Source: Candidatus Tayloriibacteriota bacterium (GTDB taxonomy: Bacteria > Patescibacteriota > Minisyncoccia > Phycocordibacterales > UBA6065). Taken from it: a stretch of DNA of 64,000 nucleotides. Position numbers and translations under genes: made by a program. Under the pieces are notes generated by a model. The model was given only the letters and a program-made list of their open reading frames with translations. It was not told the DNA's origin and made no database searches. The DNA lies in contig JACRJQ010000007.1 in assembly GCA_016215405.1 (NCBI GenBank), positions 71,297-135,296 on the forward strand, in the 5' to 3' direction. This document shows, piece by piece, positions 4,657 to 41,980 of the stretch (positions are counted from its first letter, which is position 1; each line of letters begins with the position of its first letter).

Positions 4657-5337
4657 TTATATAGCGTATCTTCCCTCCTTGTCGTCGCGAACGAGCCTCC
4701 CCTTCTCCATGGTGATGACCCTCTTGCCTATGTTCTCTACTACGCCTTTATTGTGCGTCGTAAGGACGACCGTCGTGCCGAGGTCGTTTATCTTCTTCAG
4801 TATCTGGACGATCTCGTACGTATTGACCGGATCGAGGTTTCCCGTCGGCTCGTCCGCGATAATGACGTCCGGCTGGTTCACGATGGCGCGGGCGATCGCC
4901 ACGCGCTGCCTCTCTCCTCCCGAAAGCTCCCTCGGAAAGCTCCAGATCTTCCTGCCGAGGTCTACGAGGTCGAGCACATGCGGCACGTCCGACGCTATCT
5001 CGTCGTCGGAGCGTCCCGCCGCCTCCATGGCGAATGCGATGTTCTCGAATACCGTCTTGCCGGGAATAAGCCTGAAATCCTGAAAGACCGTGCCAAAGCG
5101 ACGGCGGTATTCCGGGACGTGCTTATCCTTGAGCTTGTGGACGTTCACGGACTCGAAAAGGACCGATCCTTTGGTCGGTTTGTCCTCGGCGAGGATCATC
5201 TTTATAAGGGTCGTCTTTCCCGCGCCGGAATGCCCTACGATCGAGACGAATTCCTTCGGCTCTATCTTGAGGGTCACGTCTTCGAGGGCGACCGTGTCGT
5301 CCGAGTATATTTTGGTTACTTTATCGAAATAGATCAT
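4657..5337 (-). CDS. ftsE: cell division ATP-binding protein FtsE
   Basis: Walker A GHSGAGKTT, ABC signature LSGGERQRV, Walker B VIIADEPT. The ORF-track 5' extension is arginine-rich junk; the start is reassigned to MIYFDKV. Confidence 0.9.
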   Translation of the reverse strand: MIYFDKVTKIYSDDTVALEDVTLKIEPKEFVSIVGHSGAGKTTLIKMILAEDKPTKGSVLFESVNVHKLKDKHVPEYRRRFGTVFQDFRLIPGKTVFENIAFAMEAAGRSDDEIASDVPHVLDLVDLGRKIWSFPRELSGGERQRVAIARAIVNQPDVIIADEPTGNLDPVNTYEIVQILKKINDLGTTVVLTTHNKGVVENIGKRVITMEKGRLVRDDKEGRYAI

Positions 5338-5419: not shown

Positions 5420-6289
5420 TTAAAGGGTTTTCTCGGCTTCGATGAAGATATCGATGTCCCCCTCGAGCACCGCGTCGACGTTCGACGTCTCGACGTCGGT
5501 CCTGTGGTCCTTGACCATCTTATAGGGGTGCAGAACGTAAGAGCGTATCTGATTGCCCCATTCGATGTCGGTAGTCTTGGAGATATACATGCCCTTCTCT
5601 TTGGCCTGGCGCTCCTCTTCTTGCCTCTTATAGAGCTTGGCTTGGAGGATGTCCATGGCGCGCGACCTGTTATCCGCCTGAGAGCGCTCAGAATCCACAT
5701 GGACAGCGATCTTCGTCGGAAGATGCACGAGCCGGACCGCGGTCTCGCGCTTGTTCACGTTCTGGCCGCCGGGACCGGACGACCGCGCGAATTCGAGCCG
5801 TATGTCGTCGGGATTCACGACGAATTTCTCGGCCTTCTCGAACTTCGGGATCACCTCTACGAGCGAGAACGAAGTATGGCGCTGCGACTTCGCGTTAAAG
5901 GGTGATATGCGGACGAGCCGGTGCACGCCCGATTCGTTCTTGAGGATGCCGTAGGCGCCCTTCCCCTCTATCTCGACCGTGACGTTCCTGTAGCCGCCGT
6001 GGTCGTTCTGGTTCTGATGGAGGAATCTCAAAGACCACCCCTTGCGGTCGAAGTACCTCATATACATCTCGAAAAGGATGCGCGAGAAGTCTTCGGCATC
6101 GTCGCCTCCCGCGCCGGAGAATATGGTCATTATGGCGTTCCCTTTCTCGTACTTTTCGACCTCCGCCATCTCGGATTTGAGCTGATTGAGCTCCTTGAGG
6201 ATCGATTGCGCTCGGTCCTTATTCTCCCAGAACTCGGCGTCGGCCATAAGGACCTCTATCTCCGCTATCCTTTTCTGCTTTTCTGACAT
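5420..6289 (-). CDS. prfB: peptide chain release factor 2
   Basis: SPF tripeptide anticodon motif (RISPFNAKSQRHTSF) and GGQ motif (SGPGGQNVNK); 289 aa; no upstream frame that would indicate a programmed +1 frameshift. Confidence 0.85.
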   Translation of the reverse strand: MSEKQKRIAEIEVLMADAEFWENKDRAQSILKELNQLKSEMAEVEKYEKGNAIMTIFSGAGGDDAEDFSRILFEMYMRYFDRKGWSLRFLHQNQNDHGGYRNVTVEIEGKGAYGILKNESGVHRLVRISPFNAKSQRHTSFSLVEVIPKFEKAEKFVVNPDDIRLEFARSSGPGGQNVNKRETAVRLVHLPTKIAVHVDSERSQADNRSRAMDILQAKLYKRQEEERQAKEKGMYISKTTDIEWGNQIRSYVLHPYKMVKDHRTDVETSNVDAVLEGDIDIFIEAEKTL

Positions 6290-6861: not shown

Positions 6862-6950
6862 CAGAAAACTAAAAGCCGCTTTTGCGGACTTTTAGTTTTC
6901 TGAGCCACCTAAGAGCGATCGAATCGCTCTGTCCCGGGATCGAAGAGGTT
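6851..6950. repeat. tRNA 3'-flank mirror element (hairpin incorporating the acceptor 3' strand, plus an antisense copy of acceptor and T-arm)
   Basis: aggtggctcagaaaactaaaag-[ccgcttttgcgg]-cttttagttttctgagccacct is a 22-bp perfect inverted repeat; a downstream gagcgatcgaatcgctc hairpin follows; then cccgggatcgaa is the reverse complement of the tRNA T-loop/stem. Confidence 0.6.
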
Positions 6951-6963
6951 CTCCTATATTTCT

Positions 6964-7115
6964 GAGGGATTCCTATTCCGAAGAAATGGGAAACCTGTAC
7001 TGCGGCTGTAAGCCGAGATTCTCGGGAGGAATCGAAAGGGTTCCCTGTTGTCTTCGAGGACTTCTATCCGAGAAAACTGAAACCTATACTGCCGCCGTAG
7101 GCAAAGACCCTCGGA
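6964..7115 (+). repeat. two imperfect tandem repeats of about 62 nt (period 89)
   Basis: gagggattcctattccgaagaaatgggaaacctgtactgcggctgtaagccgagattctcggg versus gaggacttctatccgagaaaactgaaacctatactgccgccgtaggcaaagaccctcgga. Confidence 0.5.
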
Positions 7116-7292
7116 TCGCATCCTGAATTATTTTGCTTTCGTAATACCTCCAAGCGGCCTGTCGTTAACTTCCCTCCCGCTTAAGCTTTTATACCCATCA
7201 TGAAAGACGTCTTCTGGGCATTCTTCTCCCTTTTCTATTGCATCACGATGGCGATCATCGAAAGACTGAAAGGCAAACACAGAAAATAGCCG

Positions 7293-9262: not shown

Positions 9263-9424
9263 GCGTGTTATCGATAACCTTCCTAAATGGAAGCTACAGA
9301 TAGTACGTAAGCGCCGCAGGAGAGGTGTCAGGGCGGGACTCGGTCACAGGTCGTTTTCTGCTGAAAACGCCCGCCACCCCGCCTCGCGCTTTACGGATAT
9401 GCTCCCAGCATATCCTCACGCTCC

Positions 9425-9487
9425 GGCTTTCGAGTCCCTACTCCGCAAAGCAAAAAGCGTCCGAGAATGGACGCTTTTTGCTTTATG
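9425..9487. repeat. tRNA 3'-flank mirror element downstream of tRNA-Asp
   Basis: 16-bp perfect hairpin aaagcaaaaagcgtcc/ggacgctttttgcttt adjacent to the tRNA 3' end; ttcgagtccc at about 9429-9438 is an antisense copy of the tRNA-Asp T-loop/stem. Confidence 0.5.
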
Positions 9488-11221: not shown

Positions 11222-11386
11222 AGGGAAAGTATAGCAAAAGACGCCTTACTGGACGTTTGTCATACATCTTGCGGAAGGGTTTGAATTATCATGAATCGCT
11301 AAGTCTTTTGCTGCAGAAGCCAGCAAAAGCCCAAGTGTTCGCGATCCCGCCTCGCCCGTCTCGCTTCGCTCGACATGGCTGCGACC

Positions 11387-11477
11387 TTCAAATCCAACCC
11401 GACGAACGTCTCAGGCGTTCGTCTCCCGCAACAAGCATGAAAAAAACCGCTATCAATAGCGGTTTTTTTCATGCTTG

Positions 11478-30183: not shown

Positions 30184-30833
30184 TAGCAGCTCTTGCGCAG
30201 CCCGATGAAACAGAGGATCTTCTGCCAGAGGCCGGCCTTAGCCTGACTCTTCGCAGGAGAGACATCGACGGGAGACGAGCTCGACATGAGGCTAGTCGTC
30301 GCCTGCGAGCTCGAGGCTGAGGCCGGAGCCGGACCGGAGAAATCAAACGGATCGTTATAGAACTCGCTCTTCCCCGGCTTCTCATCGGCTCGAGTCTGTA
30401 CAAGCTTCGACTTGTAGGCGGCGATCCTGCCCTCGGGCGACCTCACGAGTGAGAATTCTATGTCCTCCTTCGAGAGAGGGCTCGCCTCGTCGATGTATCC
30501 GCTCATAGGGCCGACGTTCTCGATCACCCTGTTCTCTTCGACGACGCTCTCGGGCTCAGCCTTCGACGTCCAGTAGACGCTTAGCTTGTTGAACTTGTAG
30601 CCCTTTTCGAGGCATGCGCCGTCCTTTACGCGGTAAGACTTCACGACCTCCCCTCCCGGGCTAAACTCTCGGGCGACGAGCGAGATCTCGGGAAAATCGG
30701 CGAGGTTCACGAATTTGACGCACCTCTCGAGCATCTTCGATCCCGGCGGGATGATATCGGCCGATGCGAACGACGGCGCGAGGGCGATGAGGGCAAGAGC
30801 GAAAAGAGACGATGGGACGTATTTCATACTCAT
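30183..30833 (-). CDS. hypothetical secreted protein
   Basis: 216 aa; signal peptide ending ASA; C-terminal Ser/Ala-rich tail. Confidence 0.5.
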   Translation of the reverse strand: MSMKYVPSSLFALALIALAPSFASADIIPPGSKMLERCVKFVNLADFPEISLVAREFSPGGEVVKSYRVKDGACLEKGYKFNKLSVYWTSKAEPESVVEENRVIENVGPMSGYIDEASPLSKEDIEFSLVRSPEGRIAAYKSKLVQTRADEKPGKSEFYNDPFDFSGPAPASASSSQATTSLMSSSSPVDVSPAKSQAKAGLWQKILCFIGLRKSC

Positions 30834-30919
30834 ATATTAAGCGCGCTTCTATGTCGCTAATAGTAGCAGGTATAAGGAGAGGTATCGAGGGCGGGGTTCG
30901 AACGCGAGCCTTCATTTGG

Positions 30920-31005
30920 CGGAGACGGAGAGAATTTCGGTCCTTACAGGACCAGTACCCCGATTGGCGCGAGTACGCGGCTCAATCGGGCTTCGAATCT
31001 CTCAC
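30920..31005. repeat. 86-bp direct repeat, copy 1 (duplicated tRNA-Ser mirror element)
   Basis: Identical to 31076-31161 by eye. Begins with ggagacggagaga, antisense of the tRNA-Ser 3' end; ends with ttcgaatctctcac, antisense of the T-loop/stem; two internal hairpins. Confidence 0.8.
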
Positions 31006-31075
31006 ACCCCTATCGATGATTCGGTCACAGGTTTTCGCTTGCTAGCGAAACCCGCGACCCCGCCTCGCGCCGTCG

Positions 31076-31161
31076 CGGAGACGGAGAGAATTTCGGTCCT
31101 TACAGGACCAGTACCCCGATTGGCGCGAGTACGCGGCTCAATCGGGCTTCGAATCTCTCAC
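31076..31161. repeat. 86-bp direct repeat, copy 2 (tRNA-Ser mirror element)
   Basis: Same 86 bp as copy 1, period 156. Followed by a gcaggcgtaccacgcctgc hairpin and a sense-strand ctcgtctccgcca. Confidence 0.8.
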
Positions 31162-31227
31162 GCAGGCGTACCACGCCTGCTCGTCTCCGCCAAACAAAAA
31201 ACGGCACTTTCGTGCTCGTTTTTGTAT

Positions 31228-31319
31228 TGGCGGAGACGGAGAGATTCGAACTCTCGAACCAGTTTTACCCGGTTAACACCTTAGCAAGGTGCCGCTTTCG
31301 ACCACTCAGCCACGTCTCC
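31228..31319 (-). tRNA. tRNA-Ser (anticodon GCT), CCA encoded
   Basis: Type II tRNA. Acceptor GGAGACG/CGTCTCC, anticodon loop TTGCTAA, long variable arm, T-arm CGAGAGTTCGAATCTCTC, G73 plus CCA. Confidence 0.85.
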
Positions 31320-31461
31320 CTCGTACTAGCTTTGGAGCAGAGAGACAATACCATATCGACGCTCGATTTTCTACGTTTTTCAGCGAAGATTGATAAAACA
31401 GAGAGCGAGTGATAGGGTTTGCGAGAATTCAGTCACAGCAACATCGAAACAGGAGGCTACC

Positions 31462-31947
31462 ATGGCTCAAGAGACCTATCAGACGGTCGAGTCGCTTTGG
31501 AACGAGGAGGGTCGCGGCATGAGAGCGGTGTGGAGCGCAGACCCAATGCATTTCCGGACGCTCACGAATCAGACAGCTACCGCGCACCTCCTCCTCTCTT
31601 CCACCAGGCAAAAGACTCGCGGGGTCCGCGCGATCATCTTCGACGAGAGCGAGGGCAAGAAGGTCGATTACAGGTTCGACGAGGATTCTCCTCTGGCCTG
31701 GACCGACAGGGAGCTCGCGACGGCGTTCGACCGGGTCCGAAACTCGAAGAACCTCGCCACTGACCCTGACTTCGCTCGCGAATGCGGCGCAGACGTCGCT
31801 ATCCGCGGCAAGTTCGCCCGCAAAGGCAGAGAGCTCGTCATCTTCTGCGAGGAAATGGAGGGAGACCCTCCCAAAAAGAGAGCGTTCTCGATCCTCGTCA
31901 CGGACGAAATCGCAGGGGCCGTGGGAATGCTCCTGCCGAAGCTCTAA
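31462..31947 (+). CDS. hypothetical protein, paralog A of a tandem pair
   Basis: Start reassigned to MAQETYQ with an AGGAGG SD; shares the GKFARKG...V.FC...G...V.DEI C-terminal block with the next gene. Confidence 0.55.
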   Translation: MAQETYQTVESLWNEEGRGMRAVWSADPMHFRTLTNQTATAHLLLSSTRQKTRGVRAIIFDESEGKKVDYRFDEDSPLAWTDRELATAFDRVRNSKNLATDPDFARECGADVAIRGKFARKGRELVIFCEEMEGDPPKKRAFSILVTDEIAGAVGMLLPKL

Positions 31948-32056
31948 GCCCTTCATGCACTTTCCGCCCCGCGTCCGCGCGGGGCTTTGATTTGAAAAAG
32001 GGCCATCCCTCTGATAAGGTCACCCAGAAACTCAAACCAACGGGAGGATACAGACC

Positions 32057-32497
32057 ATGAACGAACAGACCGAAACGACGCCCATCGACTGGAAAGAAGG
32101 AGCGAGATACAAAGCGACCCTCGCAGAGGACGTGAACCACAAAGGGCTCACCGTCACGACCTTCGCGGCGCATCTTATGATCGAGCGCGCGGAGGACGGG
32201 TTTTCGACCCGCCTCGTCGCGTTCGGCGAGAAGAGCAAGAGGTCCGCGGACGGCCTACTCAACTTCTCGCGAGACGAGCTCCTCACGGCGCTCGGCCTGC
32301 CGCGCGAGGCAGATTCGACCGACCGGCGATTCGCCGAATCAGTCGAAGCGGAATTCGCCTTGCCCGGGAAATTCGCCCGCAAGGGAGGCGTCCTCGCCGT
32401 CTTCTGCAAAGCGGAAGACGGCACCGAGCGGCGCTACTACTTCGTCATCCCTGACGAGATTAAGCCCGCCCTTTCCCTCTATCTCAACCATCGCTGA
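32057..32497 (+). CDS. hypothetical protein, paralog B of a tandem pair
   Basis: 146 aa; GGAGGA SD; C-terminal LPGKFARKGGVLAVFCKAEDG...VIPDEI is homologous to paralog A. Confidence 0.55.
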   Translation: MNEQTETTPIDWKEGARYKATLAEDVNHKGLTVTTFAAHLMIERAEDGFSTRLVAFGEKSKRSADGLLNFSRDELLTALGLPREADSTDRRFAESVEAEFALPGKFARKGGVLAVFCKAEDGTERRYYFVIPDEIKPALSLYLNHR

Positions 32498-34539: not shown

Positions 34540-36384
34540 TCAGCTGACCGTCGGAGTATCGGTCGCACCAGGCGCCGCAGGGGCGCCATTCGCCGACCGA
34601 GCAGCCGCAGCGATCGTCGTCGGATTGAGTCCGACGTTCATGCCGAGCATCTTCTGGAGACCCGAGCCATCCATCTTGAAGAAGGACAAGAGGGGCTTCA
34701 CATCGACGCCGCGAGCTTCGCACTGAGTGAAGAAGTTCGCGATCGCCGTCGGGATCGACGTGGCCAGAGTCTGGAGGGCATCCCCCGTCGTCTTGCCGCC
34801 GCCGAGATCCGTGATGTTGATCGTGCCGATCTTGCCAAGGCCGATGCCCATGGGTCCGAAGACCTCCTTGGCGATCGCCGCGCCCGCTTCGCCGCCTTTT
34901 TCGAGGAGGCCGGGCAAACGGTCGAGGATCAGGATGAGCTGACCGCGCTCGTCCATCTTTTGGAGCGCTTCGGCGAGCTTTTCAGTGCCGGTCGCTTCCG
35001 CCAGAAGGGCGTTCTGCTTGCCCTCCGCGATGGCGTTAAGCCGCAGGCGTTCGCCCTCGGCTGTCGCCACGAGCTTCGCCTTGTCGCCTTCCGCCGCCGC
35101 CAGGAGCTTCGCCTTGTCGCCTTCCGCCGTAGCGAGCGCGACAGCGCGATTGCCCTCGGCCTGAGCGCCGAGAGTGACCTTGGTCGCCTCAGCCTCGGCG
35201 TTCGCCTGGAGCTTGCGCTTTTCGGCTTCGCCTTGACCGGTGGTGACCGCTGCCTTCCGTTGGCCTTCGGCCTGGATGGCAGCGCGTTCGGCTTCGAACT
35301 GGGCAGCCTTCTGCCCGGCCTCAGCGCGAATGAGGATCGCCTTGCTTTCCGCTTCGGCGGCGACGATGACCGTCGCGTCGAGCTCCTTTTCCTTGCGCTT
35401 GCGCTCTTGCTCTTCCACGCCGACGCGCGCCTCGGCATCTGCCTTGTCGCGGTCTGCCTGGGCGATCTTGAGCTGCTTTTCCATGCTCGCCTTAGCGAGC
35501 TCGCCCGCCAGATTCGCTTCCGCGTTTTTGGCGTCGACGAGCCCCTTGTTCGCTGCGACTTGAAGCGCGAGCTGGCGCTGGGCTTCTGCGATCTTCGCGT
35601 CGTTCTGGGCCTTCGCCTCCGCGGCTTCGCGGGCGGCGTTGCTCGTCTTGACGCTCGTTTCCTTCTGCGCTTCCGCGACCCTGATCGCCGTCTCCTTCTC
35701 GGCTTCGGCGACCTGGATGTTGGCGTCGCGCATCGTGTTGGCGATCTCCTGCTTGCCGAGGGCCTCGATGTAGCCGTGCTCGTCCGAGACGTCCTGGATG
35801 ACCAGGGTGAGGATCTGCAGGCCGAGCTTGCGGAATTCTTCCGCCGACTCCTTGACGACCATCTCATTGAACGTCGCGCGCTCCCGAAGGAGCTCGTGGA
35901 CCTCCAATTTTCCGATGATCGACCGGATGTGGCCCTTGAGGATCTGCCCGACGAATTCATTGATCTCCTGCGGCGATTTGCCGAGGAAAGCCTGAACCGC
36001 GTTGTGCTGGTCCTCCGGGGCGTTCGAGATGCGGCACGTGGCCACGCCTTCGATCGAGACCCGGACGTTCTTGGCGCTCGGGATCTTCGCCTCCTTCACA
36101 TCCACCTGGAATGCCGCCATCGACATCTCCTGGTAGCGTTCGAAGAGGGGCCACAAGATCGAGCCGCCGCCCGTTACGGTGCGGAAACCGCGCTTGTGGA
36201 CCTTGTTGTCGGCGTCGATGTAGGAGTATTTCATCCCATAGAAGACGCCGATGACGTTCGGAGCGACGCGTTTGTAGCGCGACGAGACGACGTAGCCGAG
36301 GAACACGAACGCGAGGACGATTGCCACCGCGATGATCGGAGTCGTGAACGACCCCGCGCTGACTTCTGCGATAATAAGATTCAT
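34540..36384 (-). CDS. flotillin-like SPFH/band-7 protein (FloT/YqiK family)
   Basis: 614 aa; N-terminal TM, SPFH domain, long Ala/Glu-rich coiled-coil (EA repeats). Confidence 0.85.
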   Translation of the reverse strand: MNLIIAEVSAGSFTTPIIAVAIVLAFVFLGYVVSSRYKRVAPNVIGVFYGMKYSYIDADNKVHKRGFRTVTGGGSILWPLFERYQEMSMAAFQVDVKEAKIPSAKNVRVSIEGVATCRISNAPEDQHNAVQAFLGKSPQEINEFVGQILKGHIRSIIGKLEVHELLRERATFNEMVVKESAEEFRKLGLQILTLVIQDVSDEHGYIEALGKQEIANTMRDANIQVAEAEKETAIRVAEAQKETSVKTSNAAREAAEAKAQNDAKIAEAQRQLALQVAANKGLVDAKNAEANLAGELAKASMEKQLKIAQADRDKADAEARVGVEEQERKRKEKELDATVIVAAEAESKAILIRAEAGQKAAQFEAERAAIQAEGQRKAAVTTGQGEAEKRKLQANAEAEATKVTLGAQAEGNRAVALATAEGDKAKLLAAAEGDKAKLVATAEGERLRLNAIAEGKQNALLAEATGTEKLAEALQKMDERGQLILILDRLPGLLEKGGEAGAAIAKEVFGPMGIGLGKIGTINITDLGGGKTTGDALQTLATSIPTAIANFFTQCEARGVDVKPLLSFFKMDGSGLQKMLGMNVGLNPTTIAAAARSANGAPAAPGATDTPTVS

Positions 36385-41898: not shown

Positions 41899-41972
41899 GC
41901 GCCTATAGCTCAGTTGGTTAGAGCATCGAGCTTATACCTCGAGGGTCCTTGGTTCGAGTCCAAGTAGGCGCA
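41899..41972 (+). tRNA. tRNA-Ile (anticodon TAT)
   Basis: Acceptor GCGCCTA/TAGGCGC, anticodon stem TCGAG/CTCGA with loop CTTATAC, T-arm CTTGGTTCGAGTCCAAG. Confidence 0.8.
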
Positions 41973-41980
41973 CCGACATA

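Follow-up and report, generated by a model that had tools for sequence, protein, structure and literature searches.

A perfect 87-nt repeat beside tRNA-Ser(GCT) and a family of structured elements located 3' of tRNA and tmRNA genes in Patescibacteria

Why should a tRNA-Ser(GCT) gene be followed by two identical sequences whose ends resemble its own 3' end? We have analyzed this question in a stretch of 64,000 nt (hereafter the window), for which a first-pass annotation had described two perfect 86-bp repeats with a period of 156 located 3' of the tRNA gene. The repeat and its period have been confirmed by a repeat search of the window, and the true length is one base longer: a perfect direct repeat of 87 nt at 30919-31005 and 31075-31161 (spacing 156, 100% identity). 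The two sequences are copies of an unannotated family of structured elements located 3' of tRNA and tmRNA genes of Paceibacteria-type Patescibacteria, in the same orientation as these genes. We hold this family membership, together with the architecture described below, with high confidence; function is treated separately and with more reserve.

Architecture of the tRNA-Ser(GCT) locus

A 53-nt piece inside the repeat occurs at only two sites in the 64-kb window (0 expected), and the 18-mer TTGGCGGAGACGGAGAGA occurs three times with spacings of 156 and 155 nt, in copy 1, copy 2 (89% identical) and the tRNA-Ser 3' end. TRF called no tandem array at this locus, because the shared part is just 87 of 156 nt. 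The last ca. 23 nt of the tRNA gene (T-loop, T-stem 3' strand, acceptor 3' strand, G73 and CCA) are the template copied by the element. An origin of the whole unit from the 3' half of the tRNA itself had been proposed; the match to the gene is, however, limited to the arms, with GCGGAGACGGAGAG at one end and TTCGAATCTCTC at the other, and the central ca. 60 nt are a conserved core common to elements next to 16 other tRNA types and tmRNA. Antisense of the tRNA 3' end including CCA had been reported at the start of both repeats; the complement of CCA (TGG) stands before copy 1 alone, copy 2 being preceded by GTC. Likewise, TTCGAATCTCTC, previously read as antisense of the T-loop and T-stem, is on the plus strand the sense sequence of the tRNA in inverted orientation (inverted repeats I4 and I5). 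The two internal hairpins of the earlier description (GGTCC-TTACA-GGACC and CCCGATTG...CAATCGGG) are present, as are a GCAGGCG-TACCA-CGCCTGC hairpin at 31162-31180 and CGTCTCCGCCAAA at 31182-31194.

On the host strand, an A/T-flanked hairpin is followed by the inverted acceptor 3' strand (with CCA), a hairpin (P2), the inverted T-stem 3' strand and T-loop, the conserved core, and, in direct orientation, the 3' strands of the host's T stem and acceptor stem. Pairing of the mirrored with the direct arms therefore re-creates the acceptor stem (P1) and T stem (P3) of the host itself, giving a tRNA-like acceptor/T minihelix with P2 in place of the D and anticodon arms and with the core in the T-loop. 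The locus is compound, consisting of a complete proximal element (31075-31194, i.e., copy 2 and 31162-31194), a remnant of a second module and a nested identical 87-nt unit, with the following features.

31228..31319, minus: host gene tRNA-Ser(GCT) with encoded CCA (ARAGORN; Rfam RF00005, 60 bits)
31196..31223, no strand assigned: A-tract, hairpin and T-tract, AAAAAACGGCAC-TTTC-GTGCTCGTTTTT (terminator scan; inverted repeat I1 with 22-nt arms)
31182..31194, minus: mirror of the acceptor 3' strand and CCA, minus reading TTTGGCGGAGACG, equal to the P1 5' strand of the proximal element (inverted repeats I1 and I3)
31162..31180, minus: hairpin P2, minus reading GCAGGCG-TGGTA-CGCCTGC, between the acceptor mirror and the T-stem mirror (folds)
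31075..31161, minus: repeat copy 2 (repeat search; model R1, 67.2 bits, E = 3e-13; fold)
31155-31159, minus: copy 2, P3 5' strand GAGAG
31148-31154, minus: copy 2, mirrored T-loop ATTCGAA
31115-31146, minus: copy 2, hairpin P4
31110-31114, minus: copy 2, linker GUACU
31095-31109, minus: copy 2, hairpin P5 with GUA triloop, then GAAAUU
31084-31088, minus: copy 2, P3 3' strand CTCTC
31075-31083, minus: copy 2, P1 3' strand CGTCTCCGC
31006..31074, minus: remnant of module type B, minus reading GCGCGAGGCGGGGTCGCGGG, hairpin, ACCTGTGACCGAATC (motif searches; blastn of tRNA-downstream regions; sequence of relative L019)
30919..31005, minus: repeat copy 1, with P3, P4, P5 and P1 3' strand as in copy 2 (repeat search; model R1, 67.2 bits)
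30886..30903, minus: far end of the B-type module, minus reading GTTCGAACCCCGCCCTCG (sequence; compared with the Asp locus)

In copy 2, P1 (GCGGAGACG/CGTCTCCGC) and P3 (GAGAG/CTCTC) are both found in the minimum-energy folds, and the earlier view that copy 2 and its flank form an acceptor-stem-like helix, GGAGACG/CGTCTCC followed by G and CCA, has proved sound. This region folds far better than shuffled sequences do (z = -7.3 on plus and -6.2 on minus). Copy 1, which ends with CGTCTCC-G-CCA, has no P1 5' partner and folds more weakly (z = -2.6 / -3.4). It runs into CCAAA (30915-30919, minus), is without the partner P1 5' strand or P2, and is nested within the B-type module, whose far end GTTCGAACCCCGCCCTCG could, judging from the sequence, pair with GAGGCGGGG (31054-31062, minus reading). 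The B motifs of 31006-31074 are found also after tRNA-Asp and tRNA-Met in the window and after tRNA-Ser in relative L019.

On either strand the hairpin at 31196-31223 resembles a terminator, and it lies at the tip of a long palindrome composed of the tRNA 3' end and its mirror; the segment from tRNA 3' end through hairpin to mirror has a folding energy of -58 kcal/mol (z = -8.9). The features of an intrinsic bidirectional terminator (31203-31216 plus a T-run, with the A/T stem extended to 31196-31223) belong to this hairpin alone, the repeats being excluded. There is no credible gene between the repeats, where the only frame is a mechanical 122-aa ORF (30916-31284, GC3 0.54) running through the repeats and the antisense tRNA, and a sigma-70 scan of the locus gave no promoter. 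With cmscan at E up to 10 over 30800-31450 no tRNA match was obtained on the repeats, and ARAGORN found the genuine tRNA-Ser alone. The element departs from the tRNA cloverleaf in that P2 loops have 3-5 nt and ca. 60 nt interrupts the T-loop.

In an independent Logan short-read assembly (SRR12113407), one contig stops 30 nt into copy 1, as would be expected of a k=31 assembler (k assumed) at a real repeat, and another begins within the tRNA. The latter break is not accounted for by the repeat.

Members of the family in the window and across Patescibacteria

The proposal that the repeats represent a duplicated "mirror element" is borne out by the presence of the same architecture after other tRNA genes and tmRNA in the window, as listed below.

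6901..7116, plus: member after the tRNA-Thr(GGT)/tRNA-Thr(CGT) pair, with acceptor mirror TGAGCCACCT, P2, T mirror TCCCGGGATCGAA and two diverged cores
9300..9486, minus: B-type element after tRNA-Asp, with hairpin, acceptor and T-arm mirror, and GCGAGGCGGGGTGGCGGG ... ACCTGTGACCGAGTCCCGCC
11300..11476, minus: element after tRNA-Met, with perfect hairpin, acceptor mirror TGTTGCGGG, P2, T mirror GGGTTGGATTTGAA and B-like GCGAGGCGGGATCGCGAA
45531..45677, plus: member after tmRNA, with acceptor mirror GTGGAGATG, P2, T mirror CCGAGAATCGAA, core and direct copy CTCGGCTCCAC (R1, 71.1 bits, E = 4e-14)

The Thr member is a tandem pair (72.5%, blastn), of which 6931-7030, a sequence outside the seed alignment, is matched by R1 with 42.6 bits (E = 1e-7) and 7032-7116 with 16 bits. 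The cores of the tmRNA and Ser elements have an identical P5 and a nearly identical P4 base, and the arms of the Ser, Thr and tmRNA elements are host-specific; the minihelix described above is formed also by the Thr and tmRNA elements. All five R1 copies in the window adjoin tRNA or tmRNA genes on the 3' side, and behind tRNA pairs (Thr-Thr and Met-Asp) the element is found behind the last gene only. P2 hairpins at other loci fall into recurring classes with loops GGG/TGGGA, TAAAY or CTGC.

A core scan of metagenomic sequences gave at least 120 stretches, and model R1 detected 134 cores in 100 of the listed metagenome loci. For 78 of these 134 listed cores a tRNA or tmRNA gene is located within 400 nt upstream, representing 16 tRNA types and tmRNA, and the gene is co-oriented with the core in 78/78 cases. 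Among first units adjoining a host in the listed loci, 30/69 mirror the final 9 nt of the host without any mismatch; the final 14 nt of the host are copied directly without mismatch in 25/69 and with at least 12/14 positions identical in 37/69. The direct repeat varies in length from about 11 to more than 50 nt, and there is no constant target-site duplication. The architecture recurs in the GTDB relatives L019, L027, L028 and L031; viral contigs gave two matches, one of which (L153) has the tRNA-Ser(GCT)/tRNA-Ser(ACT) arrangement of L027 and is without obvious phage features. Since presence, module type (by lineage) and copy number all vary, a dispensable element with fast turnover is indicated. 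Average core identity is 0.59 within and 0.52 between contigs, with a few near-identical pairs; general concerted evolution of the cores was rejected on the basis of this slight difference.

The first-pass annotation had named occurrence of the unit at many non-tRNA loci as the sign of a generic MITE. This is not found in the window; elsewhere it is found in part, for one dispersed subfamily, and among the matches listed 28 inner copies in other genomes have no tRNA called upstream.

Rfam 15 contained no matching family when the window, the locus and a typical metagenomic copy were searched at gathering and relaxed E-values, and the matches at or above threshold were tRNA, tmRNA and one group I intron only. 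Weak matches to plastid psbI-rps4 UTR, mir-9465 and permuted tmRNA (the last with 16 bits against a threshold of 47) were rejected as antisense tRNA or palindrome. Group I introns at position 35/36 of tRNA-Asn and tRNA-Asp of Patescibacteria have been reported without mention of these elements (PMC13011429), and such introns probably account for at least the intron-bearing host in L033. No description of the elements was found in our literature search, and the repeat family is thus apparently undescribed to date.

Probable strand, proposed role and rival explanations

On the host strand, the core consists of hairpin P4, GUACUG, hairpin P5 (closed by U.G and with a GUA triloop) and CGAA. Paired states occupy 94.7% of P4/P5 cells against 62.7% after shuffling, and the covariation score in the alignment, which was fitted to model R1, is 0.703 against 0.171 for shuffled alignments (0/500 shuffles reach 0.703) and at most 0.118 for slid controls. 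Both-sided changes were observed in 13 of the 15 P4/P5 pairs, and P5 is Watson-Crick in 384/385 cells of 77 distinct cores. P4 and P5 are thus helices with compensatory substitutions, as in structured RNAs generally; since such changes in hairpins can also result from quasipalindrome correction of DNA, the covariation is weaker evidence for RNA than usual. Strong conservation across many hosts and genomes extends to the unpaired GUAC(U/C)G, to the GUA triloop and to the basal U.G pair of P5, and holds in the 30 R1 matches outside the search pattern. Three other readings of the core were rejected: a hammerhead-like one (CUG...GAAA), with an incomplete core and no Rfam match; an anticodon-arm mimic, because the loop-closing pair covaries and leaves a GUA triloop instead of a 7-nt anticodon loop; and an SRP Alu UGUAAU motif, without a match in Rfam.

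On balance, we lean slightly toward explaining the whole as a tRNA-like acceptor/T-arm mimic that is probably transcribed on the tRNA strand. For the narrower claim that the element is an RNA of the tRNA strand, we regard the evidence as moderately favorable. The P5-base pair is U.G in 118 of 131 rows (C-G in 4 and U-A in 2) and on the opposite strand would become a C.A mismatch, and the summed folding energy of P4 is -1469 kcal/mol on the tRNA strand and -1272 kcal/mol on the opposite strand. The 3' strand of P3 runs directly into that of P1, as it does in a true tRNA, and the direct copy is often trailed by its own hairpin and T-run (L035, L053, L057, L074, L041 and L126). The strand test on P4 is balanced (G.U 49 against A.C 41), and the G.U excess in P3 (53 against 12) is confounded by base composition, the 5' strands being G-rich.

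RNA from the tRNA strand would be produced by co-transcription or by read-through of the hairpin. Because the element is tRNA-like, tRNA-processing enzymes are predicted to excise it, RNase P acting at the 5' end of P1 and 3' trimming at the copied acceptor end. The released RNA may serve the last tRNA of the unit as a processing handle, or may imitate the acceptor end of that tRNA; we regard this assignment of role as quite doubtful. A processing handle would not require arms identical to the neighboring gene, which counts against that role, and against read-through, the hairpin between tRNA and element resembles an efficient bidirectional terminator, which fits convergent transcription equally well. 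Gene conversion and quasipalindrome correction templated by hairpins would keep the arms identical to the neighboring gene: one hairpin consists of the tRNA tail and the mirror, the next of the mirror and the direct copy. Changes in copy number, including the perfect duplication here, may be due to recombination or template switching between copies of the tRNA tail and at TTCGAA/CGAA borders.

An extended form of this explanation, which we offer tentatively, is that most tRNA units and tmRNA in Paceibacteria-type CPR are followed by a small RNA mimicking the tail of the individual tRNA, with arms kept by hairpin-templated correction. Such an RNA would have the host's acceptor and T stems, with the elbow replaced by the conserved two-hairpin module, and would be freed by the tRNA-processing machinery. 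It might act in 3'-end maturation of tRNA; alternatively, enzymes, toxins or recombinases that recognize tRNA acceptor ends might be misled by it as a species-specific decoy.

A serious rival, which we consider possible rather than probable, is a selfish or neutral non-autonomous DNA repeat (MITE/REP-like) without an RNA role. In this view, the hairpin 3' of tRNA genes is where a palindromic cassette first lodges; it then spreads when templates are switched, or recombination takes place, at TTCGAA, the universal palindromic T-loop sequence, and the host-matched arms and hairpins are kept by quasipalindrome correction. This accords with the variable presence at the orthologous tRNA-Ser locus, where the element is absent in the close relatives L006, L008, L011, L012 and L013, and with the perfect arrays of two copies here and 4.0 tandem copies of 88 nt in L037. 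It accords also with near-identical cores at separate loci of one genome (L048, L098 and L041), of which those of L098 are 99% identical at two different tRNA-Ser genes and have host-specific arms at each, and with a "Tyr-type" unit of ca. 220 nt dispersed at non-tRNA intergenic sites (four copies in the 9.5-kb contig L041, and more in L039 and L126). The direct copy runs a variable 0-41 nt into the host trailer, which fits homology or microhomology and not a fixed site, and no associated gene is present near the element at 80 loci. The conserved unpaired motifs GUAC(U/C)G, the GUA triloop and the P5-base U.G, however, go beyond what mechanical correction would preserve, and the strict co-orientation with the host and the confinement of window copies to tRNA/tmRNA neighborhoods also speak against a selfish repeat; we know of no transposase for the element.

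It is less probable, and in our judgment improbable, that the locus encodes a small RNA on the other strand, transcribed toward the tRNA gene and ending at a bidirectional terminator common to both. The 3' end of such an RNA (TTCGAAUCUCUC, hairpin, CGUCUCCGCCA and trailer) would be an exact copy of the tRNA 3' end and an acceptor-end mimic. The symmetric A- and T-tracts of the hairpin agree with this, as does the slightly better fold of copy 2 plus flank on the plus strand (z values above), and the mirror adjoining the hairpin is the more exact copy, including the discriminator base, CCA and trailer. The mismatch expected at the P5 base and the lower stability of P4 on that strand argue against it, and P2 interrupts the 3' strands of the T and acceptor helices, unlike in tRNA. 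Hairpin-less variants (L068, L069 and L044), moreover, abut the tRNA on its own strand. The profile of -10-like signals outside the distal end was flat, in a test of low power, whose positive control, the region upstream of host tRNAs, likewise gave a weak signal.

That the repeats are attL/attR-type scars, left by repeated site-specific integration and excision at the 3' end of tRNA-Ser, is a possibility raised by the first-pass annotation and is very improbable. Integrases classically target the 3' ends of tRNA and tmRNA genes, T-loop included; the tRNA 3' end is present in the three direct copies noted above, and the sequence downstream of tRNA-Ser differs from relative to relative. The two paralogous genes at 31462-32497 have, as suspected, been inserted, since in relatives the 5' end of tRNA-Ser directly adjoins mutY. 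The absence of an integrase at the Ser locus has been confirmed, and neither a recombinase nor an enriched neighbor gene was found at about 100 other loci. When proteins within 4 kb of the element were clustered for 80 loci, only housekeeping genes, each at a few loci, were obtained, and no transposase, integrase or reverse transcriptase. The integrase reading is unlikely because the unit has just 87-156 nt (the inter-repeat segment being ca. 130 nt and non-coding), nearly all tRNA types serve as hosts, and the inverted copy, P2 and the covarying hairpins are left without explanation; a shared core at 16 tRNA types and tmRNA and a variable end point of the direct copy also disagree with it. 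Finally, the perfection of the repeat and the breaks of Logan contigs might raise the suspicion that the repeat was duplicated or mis-joined during assembly, or that the copies are tRNA-Ser pseudogenes in decay, but this is extremely improbable, as the flanks of the two copies differ and are individually meaningful, 87 nt is below typical read length, multi-copy arrangements occur in many independent assemblies, the D, anticodon and variable arms of tRNA have no counterpart, and the 5' arm holds the CCA complement, a sequence not expected in a duplicate of the tRNA.

Should the elements prove to be functional RNAs, they would represent a new tRNA-like class tied one-to-one to tRNA genes in very small bacterial genomes, and would bear on termination, processing or protection of tRNAs in these bacteria. 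If they are selfish DNA, the strategy is unusual, the neighbor's tail being taken as arms and the universal palindromic T-loop serving as a landing or copying point. In practice, the elements break short-read assemblies at tRNA loci, their tRNA-end duplications could be mistaken for att sites by island-finding software, and they mark currently unannotated intergenic DNA in CPR genomes; the covariance model R1 obtained in this analysis can be used for their annotation.

Comparison with known systems

tRNA-like structures and acceptor/T-arm minihelices include the 3' TLS of plant viruses, mascRNA from MALAT1 and bacterial YrlA. The present elements are similar in that P1, stacked on P3, corresponds to an acceptor stem on a T stem, with the discriminator base present and, for copy 1, CCA as well, and could plausibly be excised from a longer transcript by tRNA-processing enzymes. 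Unlike these systems, the element sits directly behind a real tRNA or tmRNA gene and borrows its stem sequences, has one hairpin in place of the D and anticodon arms and a two-hairpin core interrupting the T-loop, serves many tRNA species per genome, and is not matched by Rfam models.

As in the att duplications of genomic islands and prophages, direct repeats of a tRNA 3' end bound an insert, tandems occur and tmRNA is among the hosts. The element differs in having neither integrase nor cargo, an insert of only ca. 130 nt, an inverted copy, a core found at nearly all tRNA types and a duplication of varying extent. Its short, non-coding, hairpin-rich, multi-copy and variably present nature is shared with REP/BIME, Correia/NEMIS, Rickettsia palindromic elements, ERIC and MITEs, as are its occasional intergenic dispersal (L041) and its capacity to double as a terminator. 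In contrast to those repeats, its arms are not fixed terminal repeats but copies of the neighboring gene's tail that change with the host, most copies are strictly linked to and co-oriented with tRNA/tmRNA genes, and neither a target-site duplication nor a transposase has been identified. With integron attC and the single-strand attP of CTX phage the element shares imperfect palindromes, bulged insertions and arrays beside a fixed site, but its arms are tRNA-derived, gene cassettes are absent and no recombinase of the IntI or Xer type was linked to it.

Quasipalindrome template-switch mutation (hairpin-templated correction) is a way in which mutations arise and not itself an element. The conserved loops and the shared core are left unexplained by it, but it would account for the perfect mirroring of the tRNA tail about the hairpin and for compensatory changes in stems.

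The duplicated element at tRNA-Ser(GCT)

A direct repeat of 87 nt, present at 30919-31005 and 31075-31161 with 100% identity and a spacing of 156, adjoins tRNA-Ser(GCT) (31228-31319, minus strand). This confirms the repeat that the first-pass annotation had noticed next to this gene, and every hairpin listed there was found in the sequence or its folds. Three occurrences of the 18-mer TTGGCGGAGACGGAGAGA, the complement of the tRNA-Ser 3' end, were found, 156 and 155 nt apart. No further occurrence of the 53-nt internal piece of the repeat was found in the 64 kb window (0 expected). Read from the tRNA, the parts are as follows.

31223-31196, minus: A/T-flanked hairpin
31194-31182, minus: 5' strand of P1, the acceptor helix, TTTGGCGGAGACG
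31180-31162, minus: P2, an inserted hairpin, GCAGGCG-TGGTA-CGCCTGC
31161-31075, minus: repeat copy 2, with GAGAG, ATTCGAA, hairpin P4, GUACU, hairpin P5 (GGUCC-UGUAA-GGACC, minus), GAAAUU, CUCUC and CGUCUCCGC
31074-31006, minus: remnant of the second module type (B), with GCGCGAGGCGGGGTCGCGGG, a hairpin and ACCTGTGACCGAATC
31005-30919, minus: repeat copy 1, then CCAAA
30903-30886, minus: far end of the second module, GTTCGAACCCCGCCCTCG

Because of the parts read in them, copy 2 and its flank are a complete element, i.e., a structured repeat whose arms copy the tail of its host tRNA or tmRNA gene in mirrored and direct form. Copy 1, identical over its 87 nt, is nested within an older element of the other type. 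The fold of copy 2 with its flank gives z = -7.3 on the plus strand and -6.2 on the minus strand, and copy 1 folds weakly.

An assembly artefact was rejected as the source of the repeats. In an independent assembly, Logan SRR12113407, whose contigs (L001, L002) derive from this organism or a very similar one, one contig stops 30 nt into copy 1 (window 30948) and a second begins within tRNA-Ser (window 31289). The stop in copy 1 is that expected from a k=31 assembler (a value assumed for Logan) at a real repeat; the 87-nt repeat does not account for the break at 31289, for which strain variation may be responsible.

Related elements in the window and in other genomes

For each tRNA transcription unit of the window, the downstream flank was read on the gene's own strand, and a common order was found 3' of the units: A-tract, hairpin and T-tract, reverse complement of the acceptor 3' strand, P2, and reverse complement of the T-stem 3' strand and T-loop. 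The parts match the adjacent gene behind tRNA-Thr(CGT), tRNA-Asp (where P2 is missing), the second tRNA-Met and tRNA-Ser, and the same layout lies downstream of the tmRNA gene. In the two-gene units Thr-Thr and Met-Asp, the element stands behind the last gene only. The B-type module, located at 9300-9486 (-), 11300-11476 (-) and 31006-31074 (-) and also in the retrieved loci L019 (5227-5500) and L062, has the conserved motifs GCGAGGCGGGGTCGCGRR and ACCTGTGACCGA; it is similar to a tRNA T-arm region that carries an insertion, and it may be an A-type core without P5.

Three other features of the window were recorded. A tRNA-Ile with anticodon TAT, which is uncommon in bacteria, lies at 41899-41974 (+), and its 3' flank holds only a hairpin and the short acceptor mirror GGTGCG, without a core. 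The release-factor gene adjoining the tRNA-Thr pair (5420-6289, -), with PCRF and RF-1 domains, has a called length of only 289 aa; a start-site or frameshift issue, as is typical of prfB, may be the cause. A 33-nt tandem repeat (35051-35129; 2.4 copies, 89% matches) lies inside a large Band_7/flotillin-like gene (34540-36384, -).

The search pattern for the core (P4, linker and P5), ATTCGAA, 25-55 nt, TACTG NNNN TGTAA NNNN CGAA, matches at least 120 metagenome stretches and only 2 viral contigs. R1, a covariance model from 52 cores (alignment A1), finds exactly five cores in the window, each co-oriented with its host: one at tmRNA (71 bits), two at tRNA-Ser (67 bits each), one at tRNA-Thr (42.6 bits, outside the seed) and a second, decayed one there (16 bits). 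Among the matches listed, R1 finds 134 cores in 100 metagenome loci; 78 of the 134 have a tRNA or tmRNA gene at most 400 nt upstream, on the same strand in 78/78, and the hosts comprise 16 amino-acid types and tmRNA. Of 69 first units, 30 have a perfect mirror of the final 9 nt of the host and 25 a perfect direct copy of its final 14 nt; at 6 loci the direct copy extends 9-41 nt into the host's trailer. In L033, two elements with Asn-like arms are preceded by a group I intron (4754-5001; Rfam, 76 bits).

The PilM neighbour served to retrieve relatives of the tRNA-Ser locus, 30 in all, from GTDB genomes. Every one is from Patescibacteria; several carry the labels Paceibacterota, Parcubacteria, Nomurabacteria or Wolfebacteria, and "uncultured Candidatus Saccharibacteria" is the label of many. 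The element is missing at the orthologous tRNA-Ser of L006, L008, L011, L012 and L013; L019 has the B type, and L027 and L031, which are more distant, have the A type, as does L028, where no tRNA is called. L032 has a core match elsewhere in its locus, and the sequence upstream of its tRNA-Ser(ACT) includes a unit-like 3' end. Since the empty L011 and the filled L019 have a downstream gene in common, the element sits between the tRNA 3' end and the old trailer.

Two paralogous genes without a Pfam match (31462-31947 and 32057-32497, +; 30% identity, E = 4e-14) lie between tRNA-Ser and a mutY-like gene. In L006, L012, L013 and L019, a few kb at most separate mutY from the 5' side of the tRNA (67 nt in L013, 115 nt in L019), so the pair is a lineage-specific insertion on that side, the outcome of the synteny comparison proposed earlier. 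Many related genomes (L022-L032, L043, L085, L095, L098, L105, L153) have a second serine tRNA, with anticodon ACT, which often adjoins tRNA-Ser(GCT) and looks like an intact class II tRNA; except in tRNA-Arg(ACG), bacteria seldom have A34.

Structure and strand of the core

RNAalifold on A1 predicted P4 and P5, with compensatory changes in 12/15 pairs. In the 134-sequence alignment, pairing cells amount to 94.7%, versus 62.7% shuffled and 34.8-47.5% in slid controls, and the covariation score is 0.703 (reached by 0/500 shuffled alignments), versus 0.171 shuffled and at most 0.118 slid. The outer positions of the P5 loop exchange U...A for C...G around an invariant GUA triloop, and the basal pair of P5 is U.G in 118/131 rows, C-G in 4 and U-A in 2. 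Conservation of the triloop and of the unpaired GUAC(U/C)G linker extends to the 30 R1 matches outside the search pattern. The P2 hairpins form a small number of recurrent classes, whose loops are GGG/UGGGA, UAAAY or CUGC. A motif like GTGAACGTAGTGAAC or GAGCGAAGCGAAC forms the tRNA-element spacer, directly after the host's 3' end, in the hairpin-less variants L068, L069, L044 and L091, and also occurs in the apical loop of P4 in many copies.

The element somewhat more probably works on the tRNA strand, because the conserved P5 U.G would read C.A on the other strand, P4 energy is better (-1469 vs -1272 kcal/mol, summed over 77 cores), variants exist without the hairpin between tRNA and element, a terminator-like hairpin follows the direct copy at many loci, the topology is tRNA-like with contiguous 3' strands, and host co-orientation is strict. 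Against this assignment, or neutral to it, are the A.C cells of P4, as many as the G.U cells, the hairpin between tRNA and element, which is a symmetric terminator-like palindrome, and a promoter scan that gave a flat profile and a weak positive control.

Turnover and possible function

Cores within one contig are mostly diverged, with a few pairs 91-100% identical, and no protein family travelling with the element was found. L098 has a near-identical core pair at two different tRNA-Ser genes, with arms that differ and are each host-specific, and L037 (4655-5005) has a perfect tandem array behind tRNA-Arg(TCG), with four copies of an 88-nt unit (core and T-stem arms, without acceptor parts). 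The 28 inner copies without an upstream tRNA are largely members of a ~220-nt unit, composed of its own degenerate tRNA-tail-like segment TTGTCGAACCnnCTCCAGCTCGGCGCAC, hairpin, mirror, P2, core and direct copy. In its "Tyr-type" form, which is intergenic with no tRNA, the arms resemble the tRNA-Tyr 3' end (CCGGCGCAC); the 9.5-kb contig L041 has four copies, three with such arms at 2649, 4506 and 6544, plus 2830, and further Tyr-type copies are in L039, L126 and L130. Since the ~220-nt unit is scattered intergenically, the family includes dispersed MITE-like copies, and therefore a selfish palindromic repeat acting only as DNA stays a live explanation. Quasipalindrome (hairpin-templated) correction could yield both the compensatory changes and the host-matched arms without selection on RNA. 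The membership tests rejected a tRNA gene, a known Rfam family, a plain tandem repeat and an integrase att scar, so that the integration and excision suggested in the first-pass annotation is not borne out.

As an RNA on the tRNA strand, the element would fold as its host's acceptor/T minihelix with the core replacing the T-loop, and tRNA-processing enzymes would release it from co-transcripts. Its arms may track the host through correction across two overlapping hairpins, of tRNA tail with mirror and of mirror with direct copy. Behind tRNA-Ser, the perfect repeat was probably duplicated recently, the repeated tails and the TTCGAA/CGAA borders serving as sites of recombination or template switching. 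As a guess, the element may act as an acceptor-end decoy or as a handle in the processing of a unit's last tRNA.

The observation is real and more general than was first seen: the Ser element belongs to a family with a shared architecture, host-matched arms, covarying helices and no associated gene. No description of this family was found in the literature, with incomplete coverage, and an earlier one is possible. In CPR bacteria, this family of structured elements that mirror tRNA tails is widespread and apparently unannotated, and its members may be either tRNA-like RNAs or selfish palindromic repeats.
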